From the UHGV virus genome UHGV-1543744: 23,427 nucleotides of DNA. One strand, 5' to 3'. Positions 1,057-23,427 of this stretch are shown here, piece after piece. The DNA is from a virus. Position 1 is the first letter of the stretch. Each line of letters begins with the position of its first letter. A program made the position numbers and the translations under genes. The notes below the pieces were generated by a model. That model was not told the origin of the DNA, made no database searches, and was given only the letters and a program-made list of their open reading frames with translations.

Positions 1057-2838
1057 TTAGCCCCCCATACCAAACCGGGTGTAACCAACGTCGTGATTCA
1101 CGTCGATACCACTGGAGCGGGTATCGGTCACCCGCATCCAGGGAGGCGCATCCTTAAACGAGACCGTAATCTCGCCTTCAGCCTTCTTCGGCGCAGCCTG
1201 AACTATCTGATACGGATTGTATCCCTGAGCAGAAACGCCTGTACCGTACGCCCCATAGCCACCGCCCCCCCACTGAGTCGCATTGGCTGCAACCACCGTG
1301 TCGCTGGCACCATCAGTAAACCATTCAATAATCGGCTTCAGCTTGTCCCACATATCCTGAAACCACTTAACAACCGGCCCCCAGTTATTGATCACCATCC
1401 CCAGCGGCGACCAGGCAAAAACTTTCTTAAGGAGTTCCCAGCCAGCCTCAAAATAAGGACCAATGGTTTCCCAGAGTTTCTTAAAATAAGGTCCGACAAC
1501 ATCCCAGTTAGTGATAATTAATCCCGCAGCCAGGGCTATCGCCGTCGCAATCATGCCAATCGGCGTCATCGACATGATCCTGCTGACAATACTGATGGCA
1601 CCGCCAACGCCCATCAATCCCAGTTTCAGAATCGCAAGACCGGCAGCAAGCCCGACGACGCCGCGAATAACCCGGGGATTTTCATCCGCAAACTTCGTGA
1701 ATTTTTCCCCCAACTCCCCCAGCCATTGCGTGATATTTTTGGCGTCACCAGAAAATGCGCCGCCAATAGCCGCAAGGCCGTTAGTTGCGGTCCCCGTCAT
1801 TGCCTCCCACAGGTTGGACAGCGTACCAAGCTGTGCCTGAACACGTTTATTCAGGCTGGCCTGTTTATTCATCTTCTGCTGGATCTGATCGTAGCCATCC
1901 TTTCCTTTATCGATTAGTGCATTGACCACCTGAAGGGTTTCGGCATCATCACCAAATATTGCCTTAAGTACACCTGTTCGCTTAACGTCGGTCAGTTTTC
2001 GCAGCTTTGCCAGTTGCCTGAACATGTTATCAAGACCGCCAAAACTTCCTTTGCCGTCAGTAAAATCGAGCTGTACCCCGAGTTTCTGGCGGGCCATGAC
2101 TTTATTGACGTCCCTGATTTTCTTAACGCTTAATCCGGACTGGATAACTTTTCGCAGGGCATTACCTGCCGACTCCCCGTTCATCCCCATCTGATCCATC
2201 ATGACGCTGATGGGGGCAAGGCTCTGTGCAGCCTGAAGACCGTCCTTGTTCACCATCTTCAGAACAGAACTGGTTTTAGTGAAGAAGGACAACATGTTGG
2301 TATCGTCAACGCCCAGATAAAACGCCTTCTGGATAGTGTCGAACAGCCCCATCATGTCTTCTGACGCCGTTCCGGTAGCATCCTGCATCTTTGCAGCAAA
2401 CTCAGCAGCCGCTTCCGGTGTTTTTTTCAGTTGTACCGCAAGATAAGCTGTCGCTTTACCCACACCACCCAGAATGTTTTCTGCCGGGATCCCCTGACGC
2501 ACCAGCATCTGCATCATGTTCTGGAAATCAGCCGTTGTACCGGGTAGCTGGTTACCCAGGCCAATAGCCAGTTTATTGATGTCCTGAAAGCTCTTTCCAA
2601 CCTCGCCGTTCGCATCCATCATGGCGACTTTCAGCCCGGTAGCGGCGTTTTCCTGATCGGCATAAGATTTCAGGGAAAGCGTCAGACCCGCTGCCAGTCC
2701 TCCACCAAGCGCCAGCCCACCCTGTGACGCTTCTTCCGCCTGGCGTTTAAATCCCCGGATTTTCTTTTGCATTTTCGACAGCGCGGGAGAAAGCCTGTCG
2801 ACACCGGTGATCAACGCCTTAAGCTCAAATTCAGCCAT
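1057..2838 (-). CDS. Tail tape measure protein
   Basis: 593 aa, directly downstream of the frameshifted chaperone pair. Ala/Gly/Leu-rich helical N-terminal half, a central hydrophobic segment, and C-terminal Trp/Phe-rich periodic repeats (GPYFKKLWETIGPYFEAGWELLKK...WFQDMWDKL). ATG start with AGGAGA Shine-Dalgarno. Confidence 0.7.
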   Translation of the reverse strand: MAEFELKALITGVDRLSPALSKMQKKIRGFKRQAEEASQGGLALGGGLAAGLTLSLKSYADQENAATGLKVAMMDANGEVGKSFQDINKLAIGLGNQLPGTTADFQNMMQMLVRQGIPAENILGGVGKATAYLAVQLKKTPEAAAEFAAKMQDATGTASEDMMGLFDTIQKAFYLGVDDTNMLSFFTKTSSVLKMVNKDGLQAAQSLAPISVMMDQMGMNGESAGNALRKVIQSGLSVKKIRDVNKVMARQKLGVQLDFTDGKGSFGGLDNMFRQLAKLRKLTDVKRTGVLKAIFGDDAETLQVVNALIDKGKDGYDQIQQKMNKQASLNKRVQAQLGTLSNLWEAMTGTATNGLAAIGGAFSGDAKNITQWLGELGEKFTKFADENPRVIRGVVGLAAGLAILKLGLMGVGGAISIVSRIMSMTPIGMIATAIALAAGLIITNWDVVGPYFKKLWETIGPYFEAGWELLKKVFAWSPLGMVINNWGPVVKWFQDMWDKLKPIIEWFTDGASDTVVAANATQWGGGGYGAYGTGVSAQGYNPYQIVQAAPKKAEGEITVSFKDAPPWMRVTDTRSSGIDVNHDVGYTRFGMGG

Positions 2839-3249
2839 GTGTGCGTTTCTCCTGCTCTATCCTGTTTGCCTGACTGACCAGTAAGGGAATTTCACTGATC
2901 GGCATATTCAGCAATTCGAAAGGATTAATGCGCCAGTAGCTGGCGCAGTCAAAGAAGCGATCAGTGAGGTATTCAGCCGTCAGGCCTGGAGGAAAAAACC
3001 AGCCACAAGCCACGCCGCTGCATTCAGGTCTGCCGGAGACATCTGGTCGACAGAGCTTTGCGGCACTTTCGCCAGCCGCACAATGTATTTCGACACCACA
3101 TGCGCCAGAAGTCTGACTGACTCATCCTGATTCATCTGGTAGGGATACCCCAGCTCGCGGACATCCTTCCCGGTGGGTTCATCAAACTCCAGTACGGAGA
3201 GTGTCTCGCCATGAGCAGTAATCGGTTTCTTTAACTCAAGCTCTTTCAT
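2831..3249 (-). CDS. Tail assembly chaperone, predicted -1 frameshift fusion product (gpE+E' / G-T-like)
   Basis: The -1 frame ORF 2831-3013 overlaps the 3' end of the chaperone ORF. A shift at the T_TTT_TTC heptamer continues ...FFPPGLTAEYLTDR... exactly as the downstream ORF reads. The extension stops within a few nt of the tape measure start. Confidence 0.5.
2980..3249 (-). CDS. Tail assembly chaperone (P2 gpE / lambda gpG-like), frame-0 product
   Basis: 89 aa between tube and tape measure genes. Start overlaps the tube stop (TAATG). Ends ...AAWLVAGFFLQA, resembling P2 gpE-type chaperones (from memory). Contains a slippery heptamer near its 3' end. Confidence 0.65.
   Translation of the reverse strand: MKELELKKPITAHGETLSVLEFDEPTGKDVRELGYPYQMNQDESVRLLAHVVSKYIVRLAKVPQSSVDQMSPADLNAAAWLVAGFFLQA
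2992..2998 (-). other. Programmed -1 ribosomal frameshift slippery site (T_TTT_TTC)
   Basis: Plus-strand GAAAAAA is the minus-strand TTTTTTC, in X_XXY_YYZ register relative to the chaperone frame (GGT TTT TTC). Placement is the conserved one for tail chaperone frameshifts. Confidence 0.55.
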
Positions 3250-3605
3250 TACTGGTAATCCCCTTCTTCACCGTGGAACTCAAGATCAACCGTGCCTTCT
3301 TCGGCATTATGGTTCGCTTCGCCGTGCAGCCAGGCAGACGACAGTACATAGACCTGACCGTTCGCCAGCTCGGCAGTGATGGTCATCTCATCAGACGAGG
3401 TGATTTTGCTTACCGGAAAATTCTTCGGCACCTTGAAGGTCCCTTTGACATAAGGCGCACGGTGAGTTTCCTTGCGGTCCACAGAACCGTCCAGGCCGAT
3501 GATGTCATCATTGACCGTCCTGTTCATGGGCACCTCAATGCCGCCGGTCAGCGATAGCTGCTGACCGTCAATTTTGAAATAACAGGTTCCCCCGATACGG
3601 GCCAT
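3249..3605 (-). CDS. Tail tube protein (Mu gpM-like size class)
   Basis: 118 aa, immediately downstream of the sheath gene with a 1-nt overlap, and upstream of the chaperone. This is the conserved sheath-tube-chaperone-tape measure order of contractile tails. Confidence 0.65.
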   Translation of the reverse strand: MARIGGTCYFKIDGQQLSLTGGIEVPMNRTVNDDIIGLDGSVDRKETHRAPYVKGTFKVPKNFPVSKITSSDEMTITAELANGQVYVLSSAWLHGEANHNAEEGTVDLEFHGEEGDYQ

Positions 3606-5101
3606 TATGCAGACTCCTCTGAATACTGAAGACGGAACTGGTTAACCACGGCAAAAACACGCAACTGGTTAACATAGTCAGGCGGGAACAGCGTGTTCAG
3701 GCGGTTCGGATCGCTGGCATCACGCTCCACAACCAGGTACTGCTTAAACAGTTCGTAGTTTTCCACGATCCCCGCACGCTCAAGCTGACGGTAGGTTGCC
3801 AGCAGTTCCCCTTTGATTACCGCCGGGGTGACAATCGCCTGACCGGGACCAAAGCGGGTACCGTCGCTGGCAAGCTTGTGACGCCCGTACTTACTGGTAA
3901 TGACGGATTTCAGTTTGCGCAGTACATACGCACTGGTATGCAGCGTCTCGCTGTCGAGGTAGCTGTTATCCGCAACCCCGTAAGCATTTTTCCTGTACGT
4001 GGTGACATCACGCTGAATGCGCAGCACCCCGCTTTCGACATACGCCGTTGCCACGCCATGAGACAGCAGGGTCTGTTGCTCGGTCATCGTGAACCGTTTC
4101 CCCTTCGGCGCAGGCAGCATACCCACCAGCTCACCGGTCTGCGTGGGACGTGCCGGATCGTTGCGGATAAACACCGCTGCGCGGGCGGTACGGCTTGCCG
4201 CCAGCTCATCGGCAGGCGTCTGGGTGTCTTTTTCGTACCCAGCCAGGGTAATGTGCTGCTGGTTAAACTGGTCACCTGCGGTCACCAGTTCTGACAGCGT
4301 GCCGATCTTTGCCGTATACACATGACCATACAGCTGACGCGCATAGCTCCAGCGACCGCTGGTATCGTTCATCTCGGTCACCAGCGTGTTAACGGAGGCC
4401 GTGTCGTTGAACGGCAGGCCGATATAATCAAACGGCTCATCCGCCATTGCAGCCACCGCGCCGGTGAGAACAGGAGAGCCCGTTCCGGCGGTCCCCGTCG
4501 CCACGGCAATCTGTACGCCCGCAGGCAGCACTTCGCCCCCACCAAAGCCGTAGTAATTGAGGCTGACAGGAATTTCATTCCCGCAAAGCCCCTTATGACG
4601 CGCGGTCAGTGTGACCACGCCTGCCGAAGATGAGGCCGTAAACGGCAGGGCCGGAACGGCATTGATGGCATCCTGGATACTGCTGGCAATCGTCGTGACG
4701 TTATCGCCGTTGGTCACCGGTGCCTGCACGCGGGTACGTCCCACATACACATTCACCGTGCCGGTTTCGGTTGCTGCTCCGGTCACCGTCAGCGTAACCG
4801 TTGCCGCCGCGCCTGTGGCTTCCGGAACGGCAATCACATACAGCTCGCCAAACGGGTCGGTCTGGCGATAAGCCTCGACCATACGCGCCAGCTGACTTCC
4901 CGCACCACAAATCTGGCGTGCATAGTCTGCCGACGGCATCAGCACCAGACTGTTGGCAACAATCTCTGCACCGTTATTGGCGTGACCAATCAGCAACGAT
5001 GCCCCGCTGTCCTGTGCAGTATTCGCCGCCGAGTTATCCATTTCCGCATAAAACAGCGGAACCAGCGTATTCGACGGAATGGTGTTAAAGCTTATCGTCA
5101 T
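3605..5101 (-). CDS. Tail sheath protein
   Basis: 498 aa, first gene of the sheath-tube-chaperone-tape measure block. Size and Thr/Ala/Gly/Val-rich composition fit Mu-type sheath proteins. ATG at 5101 with AAGGTG Shine-Dalgarno. Confidence 0.75.
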   Translation of the reverse strand: MTISFNTIPSNTLVPLFYAEMDNSAANTAQDSGASLLIGHANNGAEIVANSLVLMPSADYARQICGAGSQLARMVEAYRQTDPFGELYVIAVPEATGAAATVTLTVTGAATETGTVNVYVGRTRVQAPVTNGDNVTTIASSIQDAINAVPALPFTASSSAGVVTLTARHKGLCGNEIPVSLNYYGFGGGEVLPAGVQIAVATGTAGTGSPVLTGAVAAMADEPFDYIGLPFNDTASVNTLVTEMNDTSGRWSYARQLYGHVYTAKIGTLSELVTAGDQFNQQHITLAGYEKDTQTPADELAASRTARAAVFIRNDPARPTQTGELVGMLPAPKGKRFTMTEQQTLLSHGVATAYVESGVLRIQRDVTTYRKNAYGVADNSYLDSETLHTSAYVLRKLKSVITSKYGRHKLASDGTRFGPGQAIVTPAVIKGELLATYRQLERAGIVENYELFKQYLVVERDASDPNRLNTLFPPDYVNQLRVFAVVNQFRLQYSEESA

Positions 5102-12314: not shown

Positions 12315-12800
12315 TCAGATTGTCAGAAACGGGTTAGTGGCTTTCTTCTTCCCCGCCAGGCCAATCAGACGCTGTCGGCTGCTGGGGTCGAGTCCGAGCA
12401 TTGCCCCCGTGCTGCTCATCTCGGACTCCTGTTCTTTTTTGGCGGTCAGCTCCGGATTTTTGACCATGCCACCCATTGCACCGGTGATGGTGTTACCCTG
12501 TCTGGCAATATTTTTCACGGCACGTCGCCAGAACTCATAGGCCACACACCACCGCTCAAGTACCGCCAGGTCAGTCACGCACAGCAGGCCCTGACCGCAG
12601 AGTTCTTTGGTTGTCAGTTGCCACATGATCGTGGCGAGAGGGAGATCTTCTTCAGCGAACCACTCCGGTGGCTCAACACCTTTGATGGGCGTAAAAACAG
12701 GTTCATCTTTATTCAGGGCTCGCTTGCCGGGGTTTCCGGCCAGCGCCTTGCGCGCCGTTGGCTTGGGGCGACGCCCGGAACGCCCCGCCGTTCCAGCCAT
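12315..12800 (-). CDS. terS: Terminase small subunit (P27-family-like)
   Basis: Gly/Arg/Lys-rich N-terminus ([29 protein letters not shown]) typical of P27-type small terminases. Start moved to ATG at 12800, which has an AGGAG Shine-Dalgarno 8 nt upstream. The ORF-track start at 12809 is a GTG abutting the Shine-Dalgarno. Confidence 0.7.
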
Positions 12801-13010
12801 ATGCGGCACTCCTGGTTAAATTTCATTTTTCGCGGGTATAAAAAAACGATGGGGCGGGCAGTCCCGGATAGTCAGGGCTGTAGAGATTTGACTACCCCCT
12901 CCCCACTGGATTCAGGTTACTGCTATTCCGTTAATCGCTGCTTACGGGGATAGCTGCGTTGTGATTTTGACCATTCAGGTCGCCGCTATTTCCTCACCGA
13001 TTGGGTGCTA

Positions 13011-13034
13011 CGCGTGCGCGTACTTGTCCCGAAA
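13011..13034. repeat. Box CGCGTGCGCGTACTTGTCCCGAAA upstream of terS, repeated at 19144-19380
   Basis: The 14-mer CGCGTGCGCGTACT is identical at 13011-13024 and 19144-19157. TACTTGTCCCGAAA is identical at 13021-13034 and 19367-19380. A 12-mer copy lies at 19263-19274. All copies are in the same orientation. Confidence 0.6.
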
Positions 13035-13076
13035 TACCAGAAACCGCCAGCCAGAGGATGATTTCCCTCTGGTGGT

Positions 13077-13358
13077 CTACCTTTGCCTCTTGCCGCCATT
13101 TAACCGGAAGGCGTTACCGTTCGGTTGCGCTATCCCCATGCGGTGTTGCGTTTCGGTAACAGCTTTATGCAGGTCGCCAAAGTCCTCAACCTTCACGGGC
13201 GGGCGCTTCACGTTCTCCAGACACGTTTCACGGCGGCGCTTTATCCATTCCCGATCATCGTCCTCGGTGCATAACAGCATGACTTCCATCCATCGCGCTG
13301 CGGCGCGTCGGTACAGCCCTTTTGCTTCCAGATCCTCGGCTTTACTGTCGTTTACCAT
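13077..13358 (-). CDS. Small putative transcriptional activator, PerC-like (tentative)
   Basis: 93 aa. N-terminal motif ...KAEDLEAKGLYRRAAARWMEVM... resembles the PerC/Pch family as I recall it; this was not verified by alignment. ATG with GGGGGAG Shine-Dalgarno. Last gene before the terS upstream region and followed by a hairpin (CCAGAGG-N9-CCTCTGG). Confidence 0.35.
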   Translation of the reverse strand: MVNDSKAEDLEAKGLYRRAAARWMEVMLLCTEDDDREWIKRRRETCLENVKRPPVKVEDFGDLHKAVTETQHRMGIAQPNGNAFRLNGGKRQR

Positions 13359-13360
13359 GT

Positions 13361-13831
13361 TTATCTCCCCCAGAATGGCGTTTCATCGTCGAATGGTGGG
13401 CGTTGGTCAAAATCATCAGGGGTATTATATAACTCCCATCCCGGCGCGGATTGTGTTGTGTGGCCCCTGCTGGCTCCGCTTGCTTTGACTGATTCGGCCC
13501 GCTTCCCGCCGGGGCGTACCGTTCTGGCGCTGATCACGCTGTCGGCTACTACCTGATAACCTTGCTGTGTACCGCCATCCTTGCCCGTCCACTGATTGAT
13601 CTGCATCGCTCCGGCAACACTGACTAAATCGCCTTTAACGTGTCCTGCCAGTGCGTCGGCCTGTTTGCCGAATGCCACCACGCCCAGCCAGAAAGTAACC
13701 TCTCCGCCCTCTGCTGCATGGCAGGGCAGTGCCACCGCTAACCGGCCCATTGCCATGCTTGTACCGTTTGCTGTGGTACGGGTCTGGGGATCTGCCACCA
13801 GCCGCCCGTATGCTGAAATTTGTGCTGTCAT
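13361..13831 (-). CDS. Single-stranded DNA-binding protein-like (OB-fold)
   Basis: 156 aa. Residue pattern W..FGK..A...KG..V.V.G.L..NQW...Y.VVAD is consistent with an SSB OB fold, and the C-terminus is acidic with a PF tip (DDFDQRPPFDDETPF...). ATG with GAGGAAA Shine-Dalgarno. Confidence 0.5.
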   Translation of the reverse strand: MTAQISAYGRLVADPQTRTTANGTSMAMGRLAVALPCHAAEGGEVTFWLGVVAFGKQADALAGHVKGDLVSVAGAMQINQWTGKDGGTQQGYQVVADSVISARTVRPGGKRAESVKASGASRGHTTQSAPGWELYNTPDDFDQRPPFDDETPFWGR

Positions 13832-14130
13832 AGATATTTCCTCATGTAGTCACTACCTCCGGGGATAATTTTCATTTCTTCCCTTAAAGGCCACTGCTCC
13901 GCCATTGCTGCGGTCGAGTGATTCCCGTCATCACGTCCGGCCTGTGCTGCCGTCCAGTGTGTTGCATATTCTGTAAATCCAATTTCTGCTGGCTGCCTCA
14001 TCCAGTGGGCGATCATCCTCAAGGTCATTTGCAGGCTTTGGGTGTCGCCCTGTAATGCGCGTTTGTCAGTAAACCCCTTCAATGCTTCACGCTCCTGATA
14101 GGTCATTTTCTGGCTGGTTTCTGTATTCAT
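13828..14130 (-). CDS. Hypothetical protein
   Basis: 100 aa, ATG with AAGGTGG Shine-Dalgarno, ATGA-coupled to the SSB-like gene. First gene after the iteron region. Confidence 0.5.
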   Translation of the reverse strand: MNTETSQKMTYQEREALKGFTDKRALQGDTQSLQMTLRMIAHWMRQPAEIGFTEYATHWTAAQAGRDDGNHSTAAMAEQWPLREEMKIIPGGSDYMRKYL

Positions 14131-14183
14131 TGCCCACCTTCGTTATAAGCTACCCCCCCCATAGAATCTTTTTGGGGGTGTAA

Positions 14184-14433
14184 TATCCCTACCAATCCCT
14201 ACTAACTGTCTCAGGCCACGAATGGCAAGGCTTTCAGACTGGTAGGCATTCAATTTTGTTGCCCTACATAACCCTACTTATCCCTACTAAATCACTTCAA
14301 CGGCATTTTACTGCCTGTTTTATTTGGTAGGGATATGTAGGGATAAGTAGGGATAAAAATATATATCCCTACCTAGTTTAAAGCCTTGCTACGTCTGGCC
14401 TCGTCTCGTTTTTAGTAGGGCAGTAGGGATAAG
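14184..14433. repeat. Iteron cluster, putative replication origin
   Basis: About 12 copies of the core GTAGGG/CCCTAC. Reverse copies lie at about 14187, 14197, 14262, 14272, 14282 and 14367. Three perfect tandem 10-bp units GTAGGGATA(T/A) lie at 14327, 14337 and 14347, followed by the AT-tract AAAAATATATAT (14355-14366). Further forward copies are at 14414 and 14423. The cluster is immediately 3' of the primase-helicase stop. Confidence 0.6.
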
Positions 14434-14449
14434 TGCCGCCGTAAAAGTT

Positions 14450-16891
14450 TCAATCATCACTCTGCCCGCTCTCCACACCGTAAGCGCGTGGCATGAACTC
14501 CTCAGCCTTCTCGTTATAGCCAACGTTGGTTTGCGCTCTGCCGTTAATGCTTCTCGTCAGGTAGCTGGCTCGGTACTCTTTTGCTGCTGATTTTATGGCG
14601 CGTGAAAACTTATTGACGGAAAGCGGTTTACCCAAACCGTGATACTCCATAAACGCCAGATAAAGATGATAAAGATACGTCCTCGGCTCTGGCTGGCCTG
14701 CCCATGTACCTCCGCCCATCATCATGCCTTTGGGTTCGTTCATGAAAAAAAGCGCCGCACACATATCGACAACCGGATCCGTGCCGCGTTTAACCTCTAG
14801 CGCCTCCTGCGAATCGCGCTGCTCTAGTAATAGTGCTTTTGCTTTGTTCTGGTCGGCAAAGGTGGTTAGCAGGTGGCGGATAATCACCGGGATTTCTCGC
14901 CTGATTTTTGCTGTTAAATCCGGGTCTTTGTCTGCGTCTGATACCGGGTTATTAAACGGGAATATCACGCGGCGGCGGGCAATGCCCCCGTTTCGCTCCG
15001 TGAATGTCATCGGCTCGTTATTGGTTGCCATAACAACGGCATTTATCACGGTTGTGAACTGCTTTTCATATTTCCCATCAATCTCTACCGGATCGCCGCC
15101 CGTAATGGCTTTAATCCCCGCACCCTCTCCAACATAGCGGGTCTGGTCAGGCATAATAATCAGGCTTTTTCCTACGAACTGCGCCCGTCCCCGTGCGGTG
15201 TCCAGCGTCATCATGCTACCGCTGGCGGTGTTGTGTTCACCTGCCAGCGTGGTTGCTATACTGCTGAATACGGATTTCCCACTGCCGCCCTCGCCAGTTA
15301 TCTCAATGAATAGCTGCCAGTCGTGACGCTTCGCCAGCACCATAAACAAGGCTGCTTTGATACGCTCGGCCTTATGATGGTCGCCAGCCGTTGCATGATT
15401 CAGCCAACGGGTAAAATTGGGGGCGCTGGTGGTAATATTTTCCCCCGGCGCTGGCGGGGTGTAGGTGATCCCATTGTGGTTCATCAGCCAGTTACCCGGC
15501 GAATGGGCGGAAAACGTCTGCGTGGCGAGGTCATAAACGCCGTTATCAAAACCAATCAGATCCCCGCTCCGCTCACCAATTACCGGTATTTGCAGCTTCA
15601 TGGTTGCGACAACCGATTTAATCCCCTTTTCGGTGTAGTGGGCTTCGTGCTCGTCGAAAATTGCCACCATAACCCTTTCTAATTCACTGTCTGGTAGCTT
15701 CACCCATACGCCAGATTCGTAGCAGTAAACAGTGCCACTATCAGGGTTAACCGCCAACATATCCCATCGAGATGAAAGCAACCGCGCTTTCTGGCTGGCT
15801 GCCATTTGTGCAATATCTCCGACTTCGGCTTTACGGCGGGATTTACCGCCCGCAATGGCCTGTAGTTGTGGTTTCACGGCTTCCCCCTGAATCTGGTACA
15901 TCGAATCGTTAAACGCAGCCGTAGCGACTTCCAGCCCGTTTTGCTGGCGGTAGTCGTCCCAGTCGGCTTTGTAGTCTGTCGGCGGCAGCGCCACCCAGCC
16001 AGCCACGGATAATGCTGCTTTCTCTGCGGCATCTTTGCCCGTGTTCGCCTGTTCGTCCTGCTGGTGGTCGTTATCTGCGGCAATGATAATTTGCGACTGC
16101 GGGTGTTTCCGGCGCATTACTCTGGCAACGTGGATCAGGTTCCCGGCGTCAATTGCCGACACTGTAAGCGCGTCCGGGCGCATCAGGTGAACGGACAGGG
16201 CCGTCGCCAGCCCCTCGGCAATTAATACGCTCTGCGGCTGTTCCGGTGCGTTAACGGCGTGATATGCCCCGCGCTTTGCTGAACCTGTCAGGAGTCGCTT
16301 CTCTCCCTGCGGTGTAATGGTTTGCGCTGCTGCCACTGCGCCGGATTCGTCCACCAGCTCCAGCAATAACGAACCATCCGGCATTACCGGATATTTAAAC
16401 CCGGTCAGCCCTTTTGATTGCAGGTAATCAGATTCGCCCTGTGTGGCACTCTGGCGCATTCCGGCATACAGACGGGCAAACGTAGCCCTTCGCTGCTCTG
16501 CGTCCTCTGCTGCCTGTTTCTGGCGCTCCTGCTCACGCTGCTGGCGGTCAGCTTCCAGTTGCTCCCTTCTATGGCTCGCTGCCACCGGATCGGTTTCCGC
16601 TGCCCGGTAATCAATACCCAGCACATCAGCGGCAAGCCTCGCCGCTTCTGTGGTGGCGCAGTTGTTCACCTTCTTAATCAGGTCTAAACCGTCACCAGCG
16701 CCACACTGATTGCAGATAAAGCTACCGCGCCCGTTGTCGTCGAATCTGAAACGGTCTTTTCCACCACATGCAGGGCATGGAGAATGGCGGCGCGATGAAT
16801 CAGGCACGTCGATAGACAATCCAGCCAGCACATAAGGCCAGCGCCCGGCGGCGGCACTGGTCACTTCGCGGATAAGGTCGATATTACGCAT
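14450..16891 (-). CDS. DNA primase-helicase (zinc ribbon, TOPRIM-like primase core, C-terminal P-loop NTPase)
   Basis: N-terminal CxxC...CxxC zinc ribbon (CPACGGKDRF...CNQCGAGDG), acidic TOPRIM-like motifs (AEG...IIIAADNDH), and a C-terminal Walker A (GEGGSGKS). Start moved to ATG at 16891, which has a perfect AGGAGG Shine-Dalgarno. The ORF-track start at 16948 is a GTG. Confidence 0.8.
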   Translation of the reverse strand: MRNIDLIREVTSAAAGRWPYVLAGLSIDVPDSSRRHSPCPACGGKDRFRFDDNGRGSFICNQCGAGDGLDLIKKVNNCATTEAARLAADVLGIDYRAAETDPVAASHRREQLEADRQQREQERQKQAAEDAEQRRATFARLYAGMRQSATQGESDYLQSKGLTGFKYPVMPDGSLLLELVDESGAVAAAQTITPQGEKRLLTGSAKRGAYHAVNAPEQPQSVLIAEGLATALSVHLMRPDALTVSAIDAGNLIHVARVMRRKHPQSQIIIAADNDHQQDEQANTGKDAAEKAALSVAGWVALPPTDYKADWDDYRQQNGLEVATAAFNDSMYQIQGEAVKPQLQAIAGGKSRRKAEVGDIAQMAASQKARLLSSRWDMLAVNPDSGTVYCYESGVWVKLPDSELERVMVAIFDEHEAHYTEKGIKSVVATMKLQIPVIGERSGDLIGFDNGVYDLATQTFSAHSPGNWLMNHNGITYTPPAPGENITTSAPNFTRWLNHATAGDHHKAERIKAALFMVLAKRHDWQLFIEITGEGGSGKSVFSSIATTLAGEHNTASGSMMTLDTARGRAQFVGKSLIIMPDQTRYVGEGAGIKAITGGDPVEIDGKYEKQFTTVINAVVMATNNEPMTFTERNGGIARRRVIFPFNNPVSDADKDPDLTAKIRREIPVIIRHLLTTFADQNKAKALLLEQRDSQEALEVKRGTDPVVDMCAALFFMNEPKGMMMGGGTWAGQPEPRTYLYHLYLAFMEYHGLGKPLSVNKFSRAIKSAAKEYRASYLTRSINGRAQTNVGYNEKAEEFMPRAYGVESGQSDD

Positions 16892-17225
16892 GGTTGCCTC
16901 CTGCCACGGTCGCGCCCATGTCTTTAACCATGCTTTGCCATATCTCACGCCCGACGTCAGTCAATCCGTCATTAGTGACGCAACGCTCAAGAAGCTCGAC
17001 CCCCACGGTTTCCCACTGCGGGTAGGACACTTTCATGGCTGCCAGTGTGTAGCTATCGATCAGGCTGCGAACGCCTTTTACTCCATTGACGATTTCCACA
17101 CGGACGGCGAGGCCGTCCGCATCAACCATGAAATAGTCACCGCCGCTGGTGGAGGTAATGTGGTTATACAGTGCCGACGCATACTTATTCGCCAGCGCAT
17201 TCAGTCTGAAATTTTTAGTAATCAT
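16884..17225 (-). CDS. Hypothetical protein
   Basis: 113 aa, ATG with GAGGGGG Shine-Dalgarno. Its stop overlaps the primase start by 8 nt. Confidence 0.5.
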   Translation of the reverse strand: MITKNFRLNALANKYASALYNHITSTSGGDYFMVDADGLAVRVEIVNGVKGVRSLIDSYTLAAMKVSYPQWETVGVELLERCVTNDGLTDVGREIWQSMVKDMGATVAGGNHA

Positions 17226-17234
17226 GTCGCCCCC

Positions 17235-17861
17235 TCAGTGCGGCAGCGGCATTTCAGGCCAGCCGTTTTCATCCAGTTCAGCTATAAAGCTGTTGTGAAG
17301 TTCAGCAAGCGTTTCACGCCCGAACGGGGTCAACTCGCCGCGCTCCGTGTCGATCATGGCCTGATAAAAAACAATGGCGTTCGCTGTTCCCTGCTCAATG
17401 CCGTAGCGCTCAACCATTGCGCCCTCCATGTTGTTAGCCATCGCCAGACGTTCCGCGAACGGGTAAACCACAATCCCCGCCGTGCCATTGGAGTAAATCG
17501 CCACCTGCGATGAAGTGCCGTCAGACTCAGTTACCGTGGTTGTGCCGTTTTCGCGCTTCATCTCAGAAATGAACGTCGCAGCAATCAGCCAGCGCCACAT
17601 AGTGACGTTATGCTGCGCGGTGAAGTCGAACCAGCCACGCGCCCCGCCATCAGCAACGGCAAAATGAATGGCGTATCCGATATCTGGCTTATCGTCGTAC
17701 TCTCCGGCGTCAAGGCCGTTCACGGCGCTCTCGTAGCTGATAAGAGCAACCTGCTCATATCCCCCGGCATCATTGCGGGTCATGATATTGACGCCGTGCG
17801 GTGTGGCTTCGGCGTGTAATAAGTCGGCATTTCCCGATTTAATGGTCGGTGCGTTGCTCAT
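17235..17861 (-). CDS. Hypothetical protein
   Basis: 208 aa, ATG with GGAGGG Shine-Dalgarno, ATGA-coupled to the upstream gene. No recognisable family. Confidence 0.5.
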   Translation of the reverse strand: MSNAPTIKSGNADLLHAEATPHGVNIMTRNDAGGYEQVALISYESAVNGLDAGEYDDKPDIGYAIHFAVADGGARGWFDFTAQHNVTMWRWLIAATFISEMKRENGTTTVTESDGTSSQVAIYSNGTAGIVVYPFAERLAMANNMEGAMVERYGIEQGTANAIVFYQAMIDTERGELTPFGRETLAELHNSFIAELDENGWPEMPLPH

Positions 17862-18121
17862 GCGCTGCCCTCCGCATCAATTCTGGCTATATCGACAATC
17901 GTCAGGACTTTACTCAGCCAGCAATACGCGATGGCTGCTTGCTCAACTTCGAGGAGTGGTAATAAATCGGTCATAACGTGAGCCAGCCCATTGCGGGCGC
18001 GGGTCATGCGTTCTGCTGTTCGGTCCGCCAGCGTAAAATCATCCGGGTATGCTTCTTTACGAGATAGCATCGATTCGGCTTCCAGATCTGCCGGGTGGCG
18101 ATAGATGGTATTTATGTTCAT
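17858..18121 (-). CDS. Hypothetical protein
   Basis: 87 aa, ATG with GGGAGGG Shine-Dalgarno, ATGA overlap with the upstream gene. Confidence 0.5.
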   Translation of the reverse strand: MNINTIYRHPADLEAESMLSRKEAYPDDFTLADRTAERMTRARNGLAHVMTDLLPLLEVEQAAIAYCWLSKVLTIVDIARIDAEGSA

Positions 18122-18432
18122 TTGCCCGCCCTCCCTTTGGCTTCTTTTTCACTGATTGAGCGCAAGAATGCGGCGTTTGCAGCGCTATCGTTCAGCGCCA
18201 GCGCAACTTCTCCGATATGTCCCAGCATTGCGCCTAATCTGTACATATCAGCCTTAGCGCTTTCCTCCGGGTAGCCATCGCTACCAGCCGCCCAGAACAT
18301 GAGGCTACCAATGGCACTTACGCCCAGCATTAAATCATCCACGGCATCACTGGCGCAGCTCTCAATTCCTTTCAGATCATCAGGCGTACAACCATCAAAT
18401 TTGCAGGACACTAAATCGTTATACATGCTCAT
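18118..18432 (-). CDS. Hypothetical acidic protein
   Basis: 104 aa, ATG with GAGGTGG Shine-Dalgarno, ATGA overlap with the upstream gene. Confidence 0.5.
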   Translation of the reverse strand: MSMYNDLVSCKFDGCTPDDLKGIESCASDAVDDLMLGVSAIGSLMFWAAGSDGYPEESAKADMYRLGAMLGHIGEVALALNDSAANAAFLRSISEKEAKGRAGK

Positions 18433-18608
18433 GCCGCCACCTCACGAACGCGGGTAATCTGGATGTGGGAAAGGCGTTCATTTCTGGCCTGATTTAGCGC
18501 CTCAGCTTTGGCGCTGATCGCGCTGCGGGCGTCAACGATATAAACGAACTCGACTAATTCGCCGCTCCGGGCGGTGGCGCATCCTGCAACACGGAAGTAA
18601 TTAAGCAT
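18429..18608 (-). CDS. Hypothetical small protein
   Basis: Start moved to ATG at 18608 (MLNYFRVAG...), which has an AGGGGG Shine-Dalgarno. The ORF-track start at 18638 is a TTG. Confidence 0.45.
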   Translation of the reverse strand: MLNYFRVAGCATARSGELVEFVYIVDARSAISAKAEALNQARNERLSHIQITRVREVAA

Positions 18609-18792
18609 GTGCGCCCCCTGTGCGAATACGTCCGGCAAAAAAGCAAACGTGATCCCGCGCCAGAATGCGGCGGGCTTCCTGCTCAGTCTCTGCGGCGATA
18701 TGGTGAATTTTGACGGTAATTGTCGGCATATCGCGGCGAACTGCGGCGATAATCCAGATAAATTGCGGTTTTTGGGTAGGGGTAGTAGCCAT
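18601..18792 (-). CDS. Hypothetical small protein
   Basis: Start moved to ATG at 18792 (MATTPTQKPQFIWIIAAVRR...), which has an AGGAGG Shine-Dalgarno 8 nt upstream. The ORF-track start at 18960 has none. Confidence 0.45.
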   Translation of the reverse strand: MATTPTQKPQFIWIIAAVRRDMPTITVKIHHIAAETEQEARRILARDHVCFFAGRIRTGGAHA

Positions 18793-18950
18793 TATGGCAG
18801 CCTCCTGTAACTGGGATTTATTCCCACCACCGGAAACGCCAATTTCACTGGTGGTGAGCTGAACAGGGTTGGCGTAACCGGCGTTACAGGAAACCGGCGC
18901 GGATCGCTCCGCCCCCATCCAGCCCACCATTACTTTTTGAGCAATATGGG

Positions 18951-19550
18951 CTATAGCCATATCGCTGGGAAAGAGGTGTGCAGATGCGAGGACACAAAAA
19001 AGACGCTCGGCGCGTCATGTGTCGCCTGTAACATTATCAGGACGCCAATCCCGGCACCAGATTTTGCTGGTGCGCTATAACCATAAACCGGGTTGGCGAT
19101 AGTCGGCAAGCCCTTTTTTATGGACTCCAGAAACTCACCTTCGCGCGTGCGCGTACTGTTGCATAAATTCCCTGCATCTAGTGGTGATGTCAGAAAAATC
19201 TTCCCGCCTCGTGTAGTGATGATGGGAAAATCTTCCTCGCGTAGTGACCCCCAATAAATCTTCGTGCGCGTACTGGTCTCGAAACTCTCCTCGTCACCAC
19301 GACGAGAAAATGAGGAGCTGGCATTAGCTGGCACTGTTATGCCAGCTTCGCATTCATGCGCGTGCGTACTTGTCCCGAAAACACCAAGATTTGTAAAGAT
19401 CTGGCGGTGGCAAATGTCAGGTTTTGACAGGTTCCAAACGTCGCTATTTGTCGCAATCTGGCGGCGGGCTGCTTTGCTCCAGACGTTAACATTTGCATAC
19501 ATCAGGCCAGCCAGGGGAAAGGCTTTATTCTGGATGGCGGCATTAAGCAT
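18951..19550 (-). CDS. Questionable ORF spanning the repeat-rich region
   Basis: 199-aa ORF with an ATG at 19550 overlapping the antirepressor stop, and a G-rich weak Shine-Dalgarno. It runs through the tandem repeats, three hairpins and the box shared with the terS upstream region, and uses many rare codons (ATA, CTA, ACA, AGT). It may be a regulatory or noncoding region instead. Confidence 0.3.
   Translation of the reverse strand: MLNAAIQNKAFPLAGLMYANVNVWSKAARRQIATNSDVWNLSKPDICHRQIFTNLGVFGTSTHAHECEAGITVPANASSSFSRRGDEESFETSTRTKIYWGSLREEDFPIITTRGGKIFLTSPLDAGNLCNSTRTREGEFLESIKKGLPTIANPVYGYSAPAKSGAGIGVLIMLQATHDAPSVFFVSSHLHTSFPAIWL
19131..19310. repeat. Array of about six degenerate tandem repeats with a roughly 30-bp period
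   Basis: Units begin at about 19131, 19164, 19194, 19227, 19255 and 19281, with consensus roughly (G/T)AAAT(C/T)TTCC..CG..GTA(G/C)TG(A/G). Spacings are 33, 30, 33, 28 and 26 bp, so they are not locked to codon phase. Flanked by inverted repeats at 19054-19073, 19290-19306 and 19326-19347. Confidence 0.5.
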
Positions 19551-20376
19551 GATTAGCCCCCAGATGTTTAGCTAACCAGCGCTGAGAGAGGCGGATTAGC
19601 TCGGCTTTACGCAGGTCATATCCCATACCCATATCAATCAGCGTAATGTTGGTACTCTCCAGGTAGGCGAGGTGTTCCAGTTGCCCTGCGTTCATGCTGT
19701 CCCGTGGTTCGCCAGTAATGTCATTTGCCTGCGCCCACTGCTTCGCCGTCATGCCACCCAGCACGATACGGGCGATCATGTTGCTCTCGTTGCTGTAGTG
19801 GCGAGCCTGCGTCTGTTTACCCTGTTCTGCGCGGGCGCTTTCCAGCGCTACGCACATCGGTTTAAACAGGTTGGCGGCACTGATACGGGCTTTTAGCTGG
19901 CGACGATAGCGGGCGGCGATTTCAGGCACGCTACGCTGTAATTCTTCCTCGCACTGGATGAAATAACGGCGGATAGCGCGGCCCTGTTCAGTGCGTTCGA
20001 TCATTGCCAGTTCTTTCGCCATTCCGACACTTAACAGATAGTCTTTGCCGGGTCTGCCAGAGTGCTTAATCTTGCTGTAAGCCGCGCCATTCGGGCTTTT
20101 CCCCAGATTTGGGGAAATTGTTTTATGGACTGAGTAATCGTGCCCAATGGTGAAGTCATATTCAGAGATGCGATCAGTGATCCATGTAGAGAAGTCTTTT
20201 CCCACGCCCAACGCTTTGTGTAACGCTTTTGCGCTAACAATATTGGTTTCACGCCCACCGATATGACCAGGAATAACCGGGACAATTGTGGCAAATTCAT
20301 TACCGTTAATTGTTCCCTGATAGGCGTTCAGATGAGGGGCGGCCTCAGAAATTAATCTGCTTTTTTCGATGTTCAT
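19543..20376 (-). CDS. Phage antirepressor-like protein (Ant/Rha-type N-terminal domain with ORF6C-like domain)
   Basis: 277 aa. N-terminal segment ...IVSAKALHKALGVGKDFSTWITDRI... resembles antirepressor N-domains, and ...DYLLSVGMAKELAMIERTEQGRAIRRYFIQCEE... resembles the ORF6C/KilAC-type domain (from memory). ATG with GGAGA Shine-Dalgarno. Confidence 0.55.
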   Translation of the reverse strand: MNIEKSRLISEAAPHLNAYQGTINGNEFATIVPVIPGHIGGRETNIVSAKALHKALGVGKDFSTWITDRISEYDFTIGHDYSVHKTISPNLGKSPNGAAYSKIKHSGRPGKDYLLSVGMAKELAMIERTEQGRAIRRYFIQCEEELQRSVPEIAARYRRQLKARISAANLFKPMCVALESARAEQGKQTQARHYSNESNMIARIVLGGMTAKQWAQANDITGEPRDSMNAGQLEHLAYLESTNITLIDMGMGYDLRKAELIRLSQRWLAKHLGANHA

Positions 20377-20388
20377 TTTCAGTCTCCG

Positions 20389-20823
20389 TTAGGCGGCGGT
20401 GAGATTGTCCGGGTATAGGTTGAGAATGTCGGCAATTTCAGGCTGAGAAAGTCCCTGATAGCCGCCAGCGTCGGCGTTATGGTTCACAAGCCGAATAACT
20501 TTTAGAACGTCACCGCGCCCGGTAAAGCGATAGCGTAAATGTGACCCTATCCCGTCGGGGTTCTTTTCGTCTATACGCTCAAGCTGAATATCAAGCCTGC
20601 GCTCTAACTCGCTGGCGTAGTTCCTTCCAGATGAAAGGCGGCAATATTGCAGAATGTCATTTTCTGTCCATCCCTCTATACCAGTACGCAGCATATAGAC
20701 GCGGGCGCGGTGTTTCTTTGGGGTACGCTTAGGTACTTGTACCGGGCTGGTGGTCGGCGTAATATCAGACGTGCGAATATCTGAGTTAGCCGCCTGCTGT
20801 ACGGGGCGGTTTTTCTTTTTCAT
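20389..20823 (-). CDS. Hypothetical protein with basic, Pro/Thr-rich N-terminus
   Basis: 144 aa, ATG with AAGGTGG Shine-Dalgarno, start overlaps the AlpA stop by 1 nt. N-terminus MKKKNRPVQQ...PKRTPKKHRAR suggests nucleic-acid binding. Confidence 0.5.
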   Translation of the reverse strand: MKKKNRPVQQAANSDIRTSDITPTTSPVQVPKRTPKKHRARVYMLRTGIEGWTENDILQYCRLSSGRNYASELERRLDIQLERIDEKNPDGIGSHLRYRFTGRGDVLKVIRLVNHNADAGGYQGLSQPEIADILNLYPDNLTAA

Positions 20824-21041
20824 TACGCCACCTTTCCCCGGCGCTCCGCCAGCCAGTTGTGAATCTCAACCGCATCAAACGCAGTCACGTTATCTGTTAG
20901 CTTCACTGGGCGTGGAAGAGTGCCATTTTTAACCCATCTATCAATAGTAGGCAGTGAAACACCTAGCAATTCCGGCATGCGAAAGCGACGGATGTATCCA
21001 GTTGTTGGGATAGCTGATGATGCTGGCTTGTGTGCTGTCAT
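20823..21041 (-). CDS. alpA: AlpA-family (MerR-like helix-turn-helix) transcriptional regulator / excisionase-like protein
   Basis: 72 aa. Motif ...RMPELLGVSLPTIDRWVKNGTLPRPVKLTDNVTAFDAVEIHNWLAERR matches the AlpA/Xis helix-turn-helix family of P4-like elements and PICIs. First gene after the AT-rich leader. Confidence 0.7.
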   Translation of the reverse strand: MTAHKPASSAIPTTGYIRRFRMPELLGVSLPTIDRWVKNGTLPRPVKLTDNVTAFDAVEIHNWLAERRGKVA

Positions 21042-21121
21042 ATCTCTAGTAACCTCTCTGATAGCTCATGAAGTTACTTAAAGTTTAGTGGTTGCCCATA
21101 CAGTATTTCTATTAAGACTAG

Positions 21122-21174
21122 AATCTATTGAAAGAAATTATAAATCTATTGAAAAAATACTGATCCACTGAAAG
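21122..21174 (-). promoter_or_regulatory. Putative alpA-operon promoter with flanking operator-like direct repeats
   Basis: Minus-strand TATAAT (plus 21137-21142) lies between two perfect copies of TTTCAATAGATT (plus 21122-21133 and 21143-21154), with a third degenerate copy at 21162-21173. Repeats are spaced about 20 bp apart. No good -35 is visible. About 90 nt upstream of the alpA ATG. Confidence 0.3.
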
Positions 21175-21511
21175 ATTGCAAATGCAGGTGGGATAATTAT
21201 TTTCTTTATTTTCAATTAGTTACCAGTTTAAAAAATCATTGTTTTATCAAAGAGTTATATCTTTCATCGTCATTCATCATGTTTTTACATTTCCTTTTAT
21301 CTTTTATTATTCAATTGGTTGAGTCGGTTTATAATGGCTCATGATGGCTTAAAATGCTAATGATAGCTGGCGTATCTTTTAGAGATGGGGTGATTACAGA
21401 TGAACTAAGCCGAACAGATATAGCAATGGCTAGGCATAGAATTATCTATGCTGGTGGAGATGGGTAAACAGGTAATGCCCCGCCATTGCTTTGGAGGGGC
21501 GTGAAAAGTGA

Positions 21512-22162
21512 TTAGTCGAGATCGTGGACAGCTAATAAAGCCCGTGAGATTTTTTCTAGGAATGTGGCTTTTGCTATTCCTTTATGGGATATCCCTTCAT
21601 CCTTGATTAAGGTTTCTATGTCACGGTATATAGCTGTGCGATTAGGTTTCCCATTTTGGGTGTAGGAAGATGAGCCTGATTTTTTTATCAGCAGATGTAC
21701 TATCAACCCCATCATTTTCATTGTCCCGTTTTCCTCATCCTGCTTTCTATGCTGCCCACGTCCGCTGCGGTTGGTTTCTTTGATGTAGTTTACTAACTGG
21801 AGTCCTCCAAGGTTTCGGGCTTTTTCTTCCCAGCCCTTGGTGCCACGCAAATCATCAATCGCTTCTGATATTTTCTGAACAATTATTTCTGGTGTATTTG
21901 TGTCAATAAATGGGTAAGAAGCTAAGAAAATATCAAGGGCATGGCAAGGCTCGTCTTTACTAGTTTTTTCACCTCTGTACACCTTGATAGCTCTGGCAAG
22001 ATGAGTTCTGACAAAATCGACATATTCGAAATTTTCCTCAGGCACATCGCTAATGCGCATAGATGGGTTTAGGCCAGCCAAGGCCACAGCCATTTCATGA
22101 GGGGTAATCGATACAGATGAACAAAGCCGTTCGATTGGCGATTTTCTCAAGATGTTGTTCAC
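21512..22162 (-). CDS. Hypothetical cargo protein, translationally coupled to the integrase
   Basis: 216 aa. GTG start at 22162 with a strong GGAGG Shine-Dalgarno 5 nt upstream, overlapping the integrase stop (GTGA). Visibly lower G+C than neighbouring genes. No recognisable family or catalytic motif. Confidence 0.55.
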   Translation of the reverse strand: MNNILRKSPIERLCSSVSITPHEMAVALAGLNPSMRISDVPEENFEYVDFVRTHLARAIKVYRGEKTSKDEPCHALDIFLASYPFIDTNTPEIIVQKISEAIDDLRGTKGWEEKARNLGGLQLVNYIKETNRSGRGQHRKQDEENGTMKMMGLIVHLLIKKSGSSSYTQNGKPNRTAIYRDIETLIKDEGISHKGIAKATFLEKISRALLAVHDLD

Positions 22163-23427
22163 ATTTGCCTCCGGGCTTTATCGAATGGCGTTACGTTGTA
22201 GTCTTTTCCGCTTTCCAGTGCCACCAGCAAATCACACCACTGCGCCAGCGCCGCTTTACGCTCATCAAAATACTGGTGACGGTTATAGATACCTTCCACG
22301 CCTTTAATTTTGTGGTTGAGGCATCTTTCAGCCACTACGGGATCAACGCCCAGCGCGGCTAAATGGGTGCGGGCTGTGCGCCGGAAGTCGTGAATCGTGA
22401 AATTAGGCACATCCGGCATTTCAGCGCGAACCTTAGCCAGTGCTACGGGTAAAGTGCTTTCCTGAATATGTGGGATCATTCTGTTTTGCATCTTTCTGGC
22501 TGGCAGTACCCATGCGCTGTTGCATGAGAACGTTTTAAGCTCTCTCAGCCATTCGACGGCTGGCGGTGCTAATGGGATGTCTATAGCGTCGCCGTTTTTA
22601 CTGCGTTCTTCTGGTAAGTGCCAGATGCCTTTGTCCAGGTCGAACTCCTCCCAGCGGGCGGCGCATAACTCCATTTTGCGGACGCATAACGCTAACAGTA
22701 ATTTGAACGTGATTTCGTTCTGGCGACTGAATCCCTTAGCTGTGCGCATAGCCTGAAACAGTCGGATTAGTTCGCCACGTGTTAACCAGCGGTCGCGGGA
22801 AACTTCTTTCCCTCCGGCGTCTGCCACCTCAAAGGCTGAACACGGGTTAATCTCCAGTGCGTGCCGCTTAATGCCGTAGTCAAATATGCGGCGTGTCCAG
22901 CGCAGAACGTCCGTTGCTATGGTCGGCGCTCCACGGTCAACAATACTTTTCAGCATGTCGTCGATATGGCGCGGCTTCACGTCCTCCACCTTCATGCTGC
23001 CAATGCATGGGTTTATATCTTTGTCGATACGGCGGCGGAGTATATCGGGGTGCTTCCAGCGCGGGAGGATCTGACGCTCAAAGTATTCAGCGGCAAGCTC
23101 TGAAACGCGCATAGCGTTCTTCTCTGCTTCCATCTTCGCCAGTGCTTCGGTTTTGCGCTTCTGCTTCTCTCCTGCAACGTCATAGCCCAACGCAACGCGA
23201 GCCGATAGCTCTTTGGCTGTCTCTCTGGCCTTTGATAGTGATAGCTCGGCATATGAGCCGATAACCATTGCTCGCTGCTTACCTGCGAATTTATAGCGAA
23301 AGCGCCAGAAAGGGACTGTGTAGTTTTTGGGGTAGCAAATATAAAGGCCGTTGCCATCGGCCCTTCCTTCAAATCTATCTCCGGCCTTTATCCATGCGCG
23401 GATCTGCATGTCTGTAATCTTTGGCAT
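22159..23427 (-). CDS. int: Tyrosine integrase, P4-like family
   Basis: 422 aa. N-terminal DUF4102-like arm-binding region (MPKITDMQIRAWIKAGDRFEGRADGNGLYI...), then a catalytic domain with HxxR (FTIHDFRRTART) and the tyrosine region (GVEGIYNRHQYFDERK). The ATG sits exactly at the window edge, so the promoter and att site are outside the window. Confidence 0.85.
   Translation of the reverse strand: MPKITDMQIRAWIKAGDRFEGRADGNGLYICYPKNYTVPFWRFRYKFAGKQRAMVIGSYAELSLSKARETAKELSARVALGYDVAGEKQKRKTEALAKMEAEKNAMRVSELAAEYFERQILPRWKHPDILRRRIDKDINPCIGSMKVEDVKPRHIDDMLKSIVDRGAPTIATDVLRWTRRIFDYGIKRHALEINPCSAFEVADAGGKEVSRDRWLTRGELIRLFQAMRTAKGFSRQNEITFKLLLALCVRKMELCAARWEEFDLDKGIWHLPEERSKNGDAIDIPLAPPAVEWLRELKTFSCNSAWVLPARKMQNRMIPHIQESTLPVALAKVRAEMPDVPNFTIHDFRRTARTHLAALGVDPVVAERCLNHKIKGVEGIYNRHQYFDERKAALAQWCDLLVALESGKDYNVTPFDKARRQM

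Follow-up and report, generated by a model that had tools for sequence, protein, structure and literature searches.

The segment at 19054-19380 of the virus genome UHGV-1543744 (23,427 nucleotides; this whole stretch of DNA is called the window in the following) belongs to a P4-type immunity control region, of which it forms the upstream half, in an integrative phage or satellite beside yicC. On balance, we favour the view that the segment is a translated leader of this region, in which the act of translation itself is selected, and that the repeats it holds are most likely spacer without a dedicated binding factor. The main alternative to a spacer is a cis-regulatory array. The original prediction had described the segment as dense in repeats and hairpins and as overlapping a doubtful 199-aa open reading frame (ORF199; 18951-19550, minus strand), for which RefSeq gives the name "ash family protein". 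Both this call and the cluster of repeats and hairpins can be explained as parts of a known RNA immunity switch, which is common to satellites and small prophages of Enterobacteriaceae, to P4 and to P1. As far as our searches show, the repeat expansion, the 22-nucleotide core of the repeats and the signature of a frame selected for translation look new.

Immunity RNAs and the P4-type arrangement

Rfam detects two RNA genes on the minus strand. The one at 18996-19073 encodes an IsrK/seqA-type RNA and ends in an intrinsic terminator (RF01394, 75 bits with a cut-off of 50 bits), and the one at 18847-18934 encodes a C4/CI-type antisense RNA (RF01695, 76.9 bits with a cut-off of 45 bits). The first of three inverted repeats that had been noticed in the segment (19054-19073; GCACCAG/CTGGTGC, 7 bp, perfect) is the 5´ stem-loop of IsrK. 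In a relative, L110, this stem carries a compensatory change from A-U to U-A, which turns GCACCAG...CUGGUGC into GCACCUG...CAGGUGC, and this double change supports the hairpin as a real RNA helix. Matches to the c4-a1b1 family (cut-off 46.7 bits) were found with a relaxed threshold at 43.8 bits, just below the cut-off.

The sequences expected for an antisense switch are present on both sides of the C4-type RNA, again on the minus strand. IsrK contains two a1/b1-like targets, UUGGCGU at 19042-19048 and GUUACAGG at 19025-19032, which are complementary to ACGCCAA and CCUGUAAC of C4. The C4 loop UCCUGUAAC (18883-18891) and the ACGCCAA sequence (18869-18875) are complementary to the sites in IsrK and also to sites at the ribosome-binding site (RBS) of icd. 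The latter are the a2/b2 targets UUGGCGU (18836-18842) and GUUACAGGA (18803-18811), the second of which overlaps the AGGAGG of icd. The actual Icd/Kil-like gene probably starts at ATG 18792 with this AGGAGG ahead of it, and the NCBIfam Icd-like domain covers amino acids 67-114 of a 119-aa ORF (18601-18960, minus strand).

The eta/cI/kil region of P4 gives the same two Rfam matches, isrK and C4, in identical order. Judged by its sequence, the region in the window is a P4 eta/kil/CI arrangement. IsrK has been described as a structural homologue of P4 seqA (PMC4825925), and the Rfam models for C4 and isrK detect relatives of P4 CI and seqA in phage-inducible chromosomal islands (PICIs) (PMC10111431). 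In P4, eta holds a constitutive internal promoter, seqA and CI, and Kil is a nested, truncated form of the eta product; full-length Eta is made solely from the upstream promoter, and translation of eta prevents termination (PMC10111431).

A candidate counterpart of the internal promoter lies directly upstream of IsrK, at 19080-19121 on the minus strand. It consists of an A-tract, a -35 element TTGCCG (19109-19104), an 18-nucleotide spacer and a -10 element TATGGT (19085-19080), which would place the transcription start at about 19073. A scan with the sigma-70 consensus called no promoter at 19080-19121. Among 70 distinct loci the A-tract with GGCTTGC and the TATGGTTATAG block are 80-99% conserved on either side of a variable spacer. 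The corresponding place in P4 reads TTGCCT-18-TATAGT. Because of the conserved -35 and -10 elements and the comparison with P4, we infer that 19080-19109 is a constitutive promoter, the counterpart of P4 PLE. About 500 genomes of E. coli have only 19074-19138 in common with the window.

The comparison with P4 also shows where the two regions part. Shared are the order of isrK (seqA) and C4 (CI) followed by a Kil/Icd-like gene, the long ORF that runs from the stop codon of the upstream gene through both RNA genes, the conserved promoter block at the PLE position and a P4-family primase downstream. In P4, however, only about 74 nucleotides separate the eta ATG from the IsrK/seqA start and there is no insert, whereas the window has about 477 nucleotides with the repeat array. 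The upstream gene is vis in P4, but ant in the window and a Bro-N or DUF4222 gene in relatives. Furthermore, the frame is split in this copy, and about half of the relatives have it out of phase with icd.

The immI region of P1 and P7 (c4, icd, ant) likewise has a C4-family RNA that is complementary to a1/b1 sites upstream and to a2/b2 sites at the icd RBS, with an Icd-like division inhibitor directly downstream. There the arrangement of the other genes differs, since here ant lies upstream and replication genes lie downstream. We know of no repeat-filled translated leader upstream of the promoter in P1. The isrK-orf45-anrP region of the Salmonella prophage Gifsy-1 also has an IsrK that is made from a promoter of its own and ends at a leaky terminator, and a processed C4-like RNA and a small ORF come after it. 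It differs in what lies downstream, which is anrP and the control of antQ in Gifsy-1 and replication genes here, and the segment in the window is located upstream of the isrK promoter, in a region outside the description of Gifsy-1.

A frame kept open without a constrained protein

ORF199 is the 5´ part of a long frame that resembles P4 eta. Its start codon (19550-19548) overlaps the 3´ end of the AntA/B gene, which ends with a stop codon at 19545-19543. In relatives, the frame is a single continuous ORF of 226-304 aa that extends from the stop codon of the upstream gene to the stop codon of icd. For a comparison we gathered 105 loci from genomes and viral contigs, using search patterns that required no open upstream frame, and counted stop codons from the promoter to 300 nucleotides past the IsrK start in 88 distinct loci. 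The long frame contained 11 stops, all of them in three loci, so that it was open in 85 of the 88, whereas the other two frames contained 364 and 545 stops. We also considered whether another sense frame or the antisense strand hides a gene, and rejected this because of the many stops in the other frames.

The window is one of the three loci with stops in the long frame. The IsrK terminator has a run of six T here (18996-19001, minus strand), and the DNA alignment shows seven in L110 and L111, two Klebsiella-type contigs that carry the same allele and are otherwise almost identical to the window in this part. With the T missing, the long frame stops at 18951, which gives ORF199 and, as the downstream part of the split frame, the 119-aa ORF with the Icd-like domain at its C-terminus. 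Adding one T to the window restores the peptide of the intact homologues P0052 and P0003. The shorter run may reflect either a genuine mutation or an error in sequencing the homopolymer. The ATG of the 119-aa ORF (18960) lies seven nucleotides before the end of the ORF199 stop codon (ATGGCTATAG), and owing to this overlap termination followed by re-initiation is conceivable.

The long frame is in phase with icd in 36 of 90 distinct loci, as P4 eta is with kil, and out of phase in 41 of the 90. In the out-of-phase loci it stays open for more than 600 nucleotides and continues through icd in another frame into the next gene (examples are L003, L023, L042-L049, L061-L094 and others).

The amino acid sequence encoded upstream of IsrK shows no sign of constraint. 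For a conserved module of 75 nucleotides, represented by 16 distinct sequences that were chosen without regard to protein differences, the ratio of nonsynonymous to synonymous differences per site (pN/pS) was 1.22, with zero stops and with substitutions spread evenly over the codon positions. The icd core of the same loci gave 0.17, and the icd values ranged from 0.13 to 0.17 across comparisons. In the repeat segment (10 loci) the variable columns were distributed 12/10/9 over the three codon positions, and pS was 0.032, compared to 0.31 for icd; these loci had been picked for amino acid differences, so that only the low pS is unbiased. According to the original prediction, ORF199 may be spurious or a coding region that doubles as a cis element. 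It is not simply spurious, but the front of a P4-eta-like frame that is open almost throughout the relatives. In the part ahead of the IsrK promoter, this frame has stayed open although its protein is not constrained.

Could ORF199 nevertheless be a functional protein with an internal peptide repeat? The open frame and its coupling to the upstream gene would fit, as would the RefSeq label and some weak recurring motifs (for example QNKAFPLAGL and FETSTR). Against it stand the pN/pS value and the fact that the repeat units are read in two frames. An AlphaFold2 model from a 29-sequence alignment had a mean predicted local distance difference test (pLDDT) score of 39.7 and was without secondary structure, and amino acids 1-143 matched no Pfam, PHROG or NCBIfam family. 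A folded protein was rejected on these grounds. In addition, this copy is truncated by the frameshift. ORF199 does not behave like a coding gene under purifying selection, since its amino acids are not conserved above synonymous sites and the only matching profile covers just a part of it. A functional protein is therefore very improbable.

That profile is Pfam Phage_ASH (PF10554), and its position explains the name in RefSeq. It matches only amino acids 157-196 of ORF199, which are encoded by the IsrK DNA, and continues on amino acids 6-64 of the 119-aa ORF, which are encoded by the C4 DNA. Positions 2-43 of the profile align to translated IsrK and positions 46-103 to translated C4 (window 18769-19082). 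Since the profile lies on the DNA of IsrK and C4, the "Ash" family is the translation of two RNA genes.

Taken together, the open frame, the lack of amino acid constraint and the frequent lack of phase with icd suggest that translation itself is selected and not the protein. The long ORFs annotated as "Icd-like" or "ash" in hundreds of genomes are accordingly best read as translated leaders. A frame that stays open over 250-1000 nucleotides with a pN/pS of about 1 and a low nucleotide divergence would be a natural example of selection for translation itself.

How such a leader might work can be outlined from the known systems. In P4 and P1, C4-type RNAs are known to silence icd and replication genes. 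In the resting state, IsrK and C4 would be made from the internal promoter, and pairing of C4 with its targets would keep icd and the replication genes off, as the RNA families and the complementarities suggest for this element. If the alpA operon is induced, ribosomes coupled from ant would read through the promoter, the IsrK terminator and C4 in the long frame, and this translation would block the terminator, the antisense structures and the action of Rho. Such a bypass was shown for P4 eta; that it would operate in this element we infer from the open frame, its lack of amino acid constraint and its frequent lack of phase with icd. In the copy in the window, re-initiation at ATG 18960 may partly rescue the read-through. 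The repeats are a DNA-level minisatellite, and an alternating purine-pyrimidine run forms the end of their 22-nucleotide core; according to this model, they would grow and shrink by recombination between cores, and stop-free versions alone would survive. With other translated leaders, in which Rho-dependent or intrinsic termination is controlled by translation and not by the product, the leader would share that an open frame without amino acid constraint covers a terminator and antisense targets. Classical leader peptides are different: here the frame has 200-300 codons, is coupled to the preceding gene and contains an internal promoter and two RNA genes.

Repeats, boxes and their possible roles

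All three inverted repeats reported for the segment are present and perfect. Besides the IsrK stem these are CTCGTC/GACGAG at 19290-19306 (6 bp) and AGCTGGCA/TGCCAGCT at 19326-19347 (8 bp). Three copies of a CGTGCG(CG)TACT box had also been noted, and two exact copies and one with two mismatches were indeed found. The 12-mer CGTGCGCGTACT occurs exactly at 19146-19157 (box 3) and 19263-19274 (box 2) and, outside the segment, at 13013-13024. Box 1 (19359-19370, minus strand; AGTACGCACGCG) is the copy of the 12-mer with two mismatches and a degenerate copy of the core. By our arithmetic, about 0.003 occurrences of three exact copies of one 12-mer would be expected by chance in 23.4 kb. In each box, purines and pyrimidines alternate perfectly over 11-15 nucleotides.

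The claim of six degenerate tandem repeats needs a more cautious wording. Three units are clear, with start-to-start spacings of 32 and 28 nucleotides; the unit pattern had three matches with 0.01 expected, and three were reached in none of 100 shuffles. Three further units were added via sub-motifs shared in the alignment and the recurrence of the unit in relatives. Tandem Repeats Finder reported no array in the segment, and the ungapped autocorrelation was not significant (124 of 2000 shuffles reached the observed value). Since both methods missed the array, the six units are backed by comparative data and not by the sequence of the window alone. Thus, the accurate description is three clear plus three degenerate units. 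The units are about 30 nucleotides (28-33) in length and lie on the minus strand at 19110-19294 (u1 19294-19264, u2 19263-19236, u3 19235-19204, u4 19203-19171, u5 19170-19143, u6 19142-19110), with the core consensus GAGTTTCGAGACCAGTACGCGC. Within ORF199, the DNA unit is read in one frame at some places and in another frame at others, which agrees with the earlier statement that the repeats are not codon-phased.

Among relatives, the part between the frame start and IsrK is a mosaic. The distance from the ATG to the IsrK start, 477 nucleotides in the window, ranges from 84 to 693 nucleotides in 87 distinct versions. Relatives have between 0 and 6 units, the breakpoints fall at the boxes, and the proteins between fixed anchors fall into classes of 28, 47, 63-64 and 67 residues. 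The DNA alignment shows a conserved 90-nucleotide module (19263-19350, minus strand) that contains the two palindromes at 19290-19306 and 19326-19347, ends in box 2 and hardly differs between E. coli, Kosakonia, Atlantibacter, Enterobacter and Scandinavium; its pN/pS is 1.22. Another insert module, encoding YANVNVWSK...GVFG (19385-19497, minus strand), is lineage-specific and, according to DNA and protein alignments, present in some relatives and not in others. The E. coli relative L002 is without window 19159-19262, that is three 32-nucleotide repeats and the spacer beyond them, and has kept the frame. The repeat segment was unmatched in cultured phage records apart from one 26-nucleotide match.

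One unit copy is located far from the immunity region. Box A (13011-13036, minus strand; TTTCGGGACAAGTACGCGCACGCG) lies in the un-annotated spacer between perC and terS, 53 nucleotides past the perC stop codon, and in the perC frame it reads VFRDKYAHA followed by a stop. It shares the flank TTTCGGGACAAGTACGC with box 1, and many of the E. coli elements with perC-terS have it. Among genomes of E. coli, the unit occurs only under "Icd-like" or "ash" annotations or in this perC-terS spacer. The 9-mer AGTACGCGC had 51 matches inside inserts, on the sense strand, versus 8 elsewhere in 448 kb; of the eight, three are in L033, which is another eta insert, three are box A copies and two are in L034.

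Several observations weigh against the repeats being mere spacer in a translated leader. In the same loci, the insert has a pS of 0.03-0.12 compared to 0.31-0.36 for icd, and its nucleotides upstream of the promoter vary three to ten times less than icd synonymous sites, so that it is more conserved than expected for a neutral spacer. The 22-nucleotide core GAGTTTCGAGACCAGTACGCGC shows position-specific conservation inside otherwise unrelated flanks, AGTACGCGC is almost restricted to one location and strand, and with box A one unit copy lies outside coding sequence, ahead of the packaging genes. These points agree better with a sequence-specific cis function, unless the low divergence is explained by a recent exchange of modules. 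Furthermore, the promoter is a putative one and translation-dependent antitermination is proposed here by analogy, and since the frame is broken in this copy the bypass may be impaired in it.

The units might be operator- or iteron-like sites for a DNA-binding protein (AlpA, ORF144, Ant/Bro, PerC, or a protein of the helper phage or host) that tunes the IsrK/C4 promoter, with box A as a further site. Apart from the points just given, it would agree with such an array that the last box is located about 84 nucleotides upstream of the IsrK transcription start in every relative with the STR(T/V)REGEFLESIKKG junction ending, and that the spacing of the units, 28-33 nucleotides, corresponds to about three helical turns. 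On the other hand, most versions of the region including P4 have no box, the copy number changes over its whole range even between close relatives, and the core has no dyad symmetry. Whether boxes are present is also independent of which kind of gene lies upstream (Ant, DUF4222, Bro-N or other), and accordingly a tie to any one regulator gene there was dropped. In Klebsiella and Serratia, relatives with the full eta array are without box A, for which reason it was also dismissed as a general partner site near late genes. The proteins named are candidates only. Altogether, we regard an operator array as possible though rather unlikely. In its widest form, this idea would make the 22-nucleotide core an undescribed cis-element in a protein-neutral translated frame, bound by a factor and tuning both the immunity promoter and the packaging operon of this element, to which we assign a low probability. 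If the core has a cis role, P4-type immunity has an unrecognised control input; otherwise the array is an ordinary recombination-prone spacer. If a factor binds the core, a protein-DNA layer would be added to a switch thought to be purely RNA-based.

The earlier idea of a DNA- or RNA-level feature holds for the DNA level, where it is supported by the reading of one unit in two frames and by the pattern within the core, in which codon position 2 of the long frame varies most and position 3 is conserved. A structured RNA is not supported. The two hairpins at 19290-19306 and 19326-19347 are broken by substitutions in 16 relatives without compensation. Rfam is blank in 19087-19545, and the folding z-score of the sense strand (-2.3) is similar to that of the antisense strand (-2.1). 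It might still be that the repeats act in the RNA of the long induced transcript: Hfq, ProQ or CsrA could bind there, the transcript could be processed there, or the repeats could be a decoy for IsrK or C4. Every copy is on the sense strand, unit 4 is complementary to the 5´ hairpin of IsrK at 10 of 11 positions, and the neighbouring RNAs are Hfq-associated regulators (PMC4825925). However, 171 and 197 of 200 shuffled leaders pair as well with IsrK or C4 in RNAduplex, which is crude for long sequences, and a decoy or target for either RNA was rejected because the duplex energies are no better than those of shuffled leaders. If the region is translated, a stable RNA structure or binding is less likely. 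We consider a role at the RNA level quite unlikely.

The units could also be relics of a coding sequence in another frame, with the peptide E/D-F-R-D-Q/K-Y-A-R/H, that was repeatedly copied in and is now without function. In 68 distinct copies the core varies most at positions with a spacing of three bases, which are the wobble positions of that other frame, and all four CGN codons are seen at one position. Moreover, L002 and about 12 protein clusters read the unit as EEFSEKYRRAR in the long frame, and L034, an unrelated GC-rich viral contig, reads the same 22 nucleotides as PEFRDKYAHARE in a 99-aa ORF. But the other frame is open for just 10-55 codons around the units and without start codons, no source gene was found (with the one longer ORF as query, tblastn had no match in 50,697 phage records), and the three-base pattern rests on few positions and may be chance. 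This origin of the units is given little credence here. The match in L034 (IMG/VR contig 3300012848_000036, 11106-11127) consists of the 22-nucleotide unit followed by CGCGCG, and the 99-aa ORF has no homologue in the phage collection; with about 0.6 matches expected for the scan by our estimate, it may be a chance match.

A last possibility is that the array works as an origin of replication or as a centromere-like (partition) site, of which the second had also been suggested. Direct repeats at a spacing of about three helical turns in a mobile element with a P4-family primase would be compatible with it. Iterons do exist in the window, but elsewhere: nine copies of GTAGGGATA in both orientations are located at 14184-14431 beside the primase gene and none in 19054-19380. 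They flank an AT-rich stretch directly downstream of the primase, and 15 matches with at most one mismatch were found in the window versus 2.5 expected. The part at 14184-14431 is probably the replication origin or crr-like site of the element. No partition gene was present among the annotated features of 13077-23427 or among Pfam matches of the larger ORFs elsewhere, the array lies inside a putatively translated frame and many relatives are without it. We therefore regard an origin or centromere-like function of the segment as extremely improbable, and the translated leader with its repeats as spacer stays the explanation that we favour.

Genetic context of the element

The minus strand carries every gene of the element. 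The integrase gene (22159-23427) is followed by alpA (20823-21041), a 144-aa ORF (ORF144) between the AlpA and AntA/B genes, the gene for the AntA/B protein (ant; 19543-20376), ORF199 and the 119-aa ORF. Small ORFs separate the latter from the P4-family primase gene (14450-16948). Then come the genes for SSB, PerC (13077-13358), terS (12315-12809), terL, portal, capsid, tail sheath and tape measure, all on the minus strand. The E. coli genome GDSC2239PM is 100% identical to the window over 18600-20000, and yicC, rph and pyrE adjoin the element.

In addition to its genes for head and packaging, the element has genes for a tail sheath protein (3605-5101) and a tape-measure-like protein (1057-2838). 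Given these genes (window 1057-5101), it looks like more than a capsid-forming PICI. L118 and L121, which have the same early region and are also located at yicC, are satellites of 11-14 kb without head genes. Upstream of alpA, a 470-nucleotide spacer contains three direct repeats of ATCTATTGAAAGA (21123-21175) with spacings of 21 and 19 nucleotides, which may be regulator or arm-type sites.

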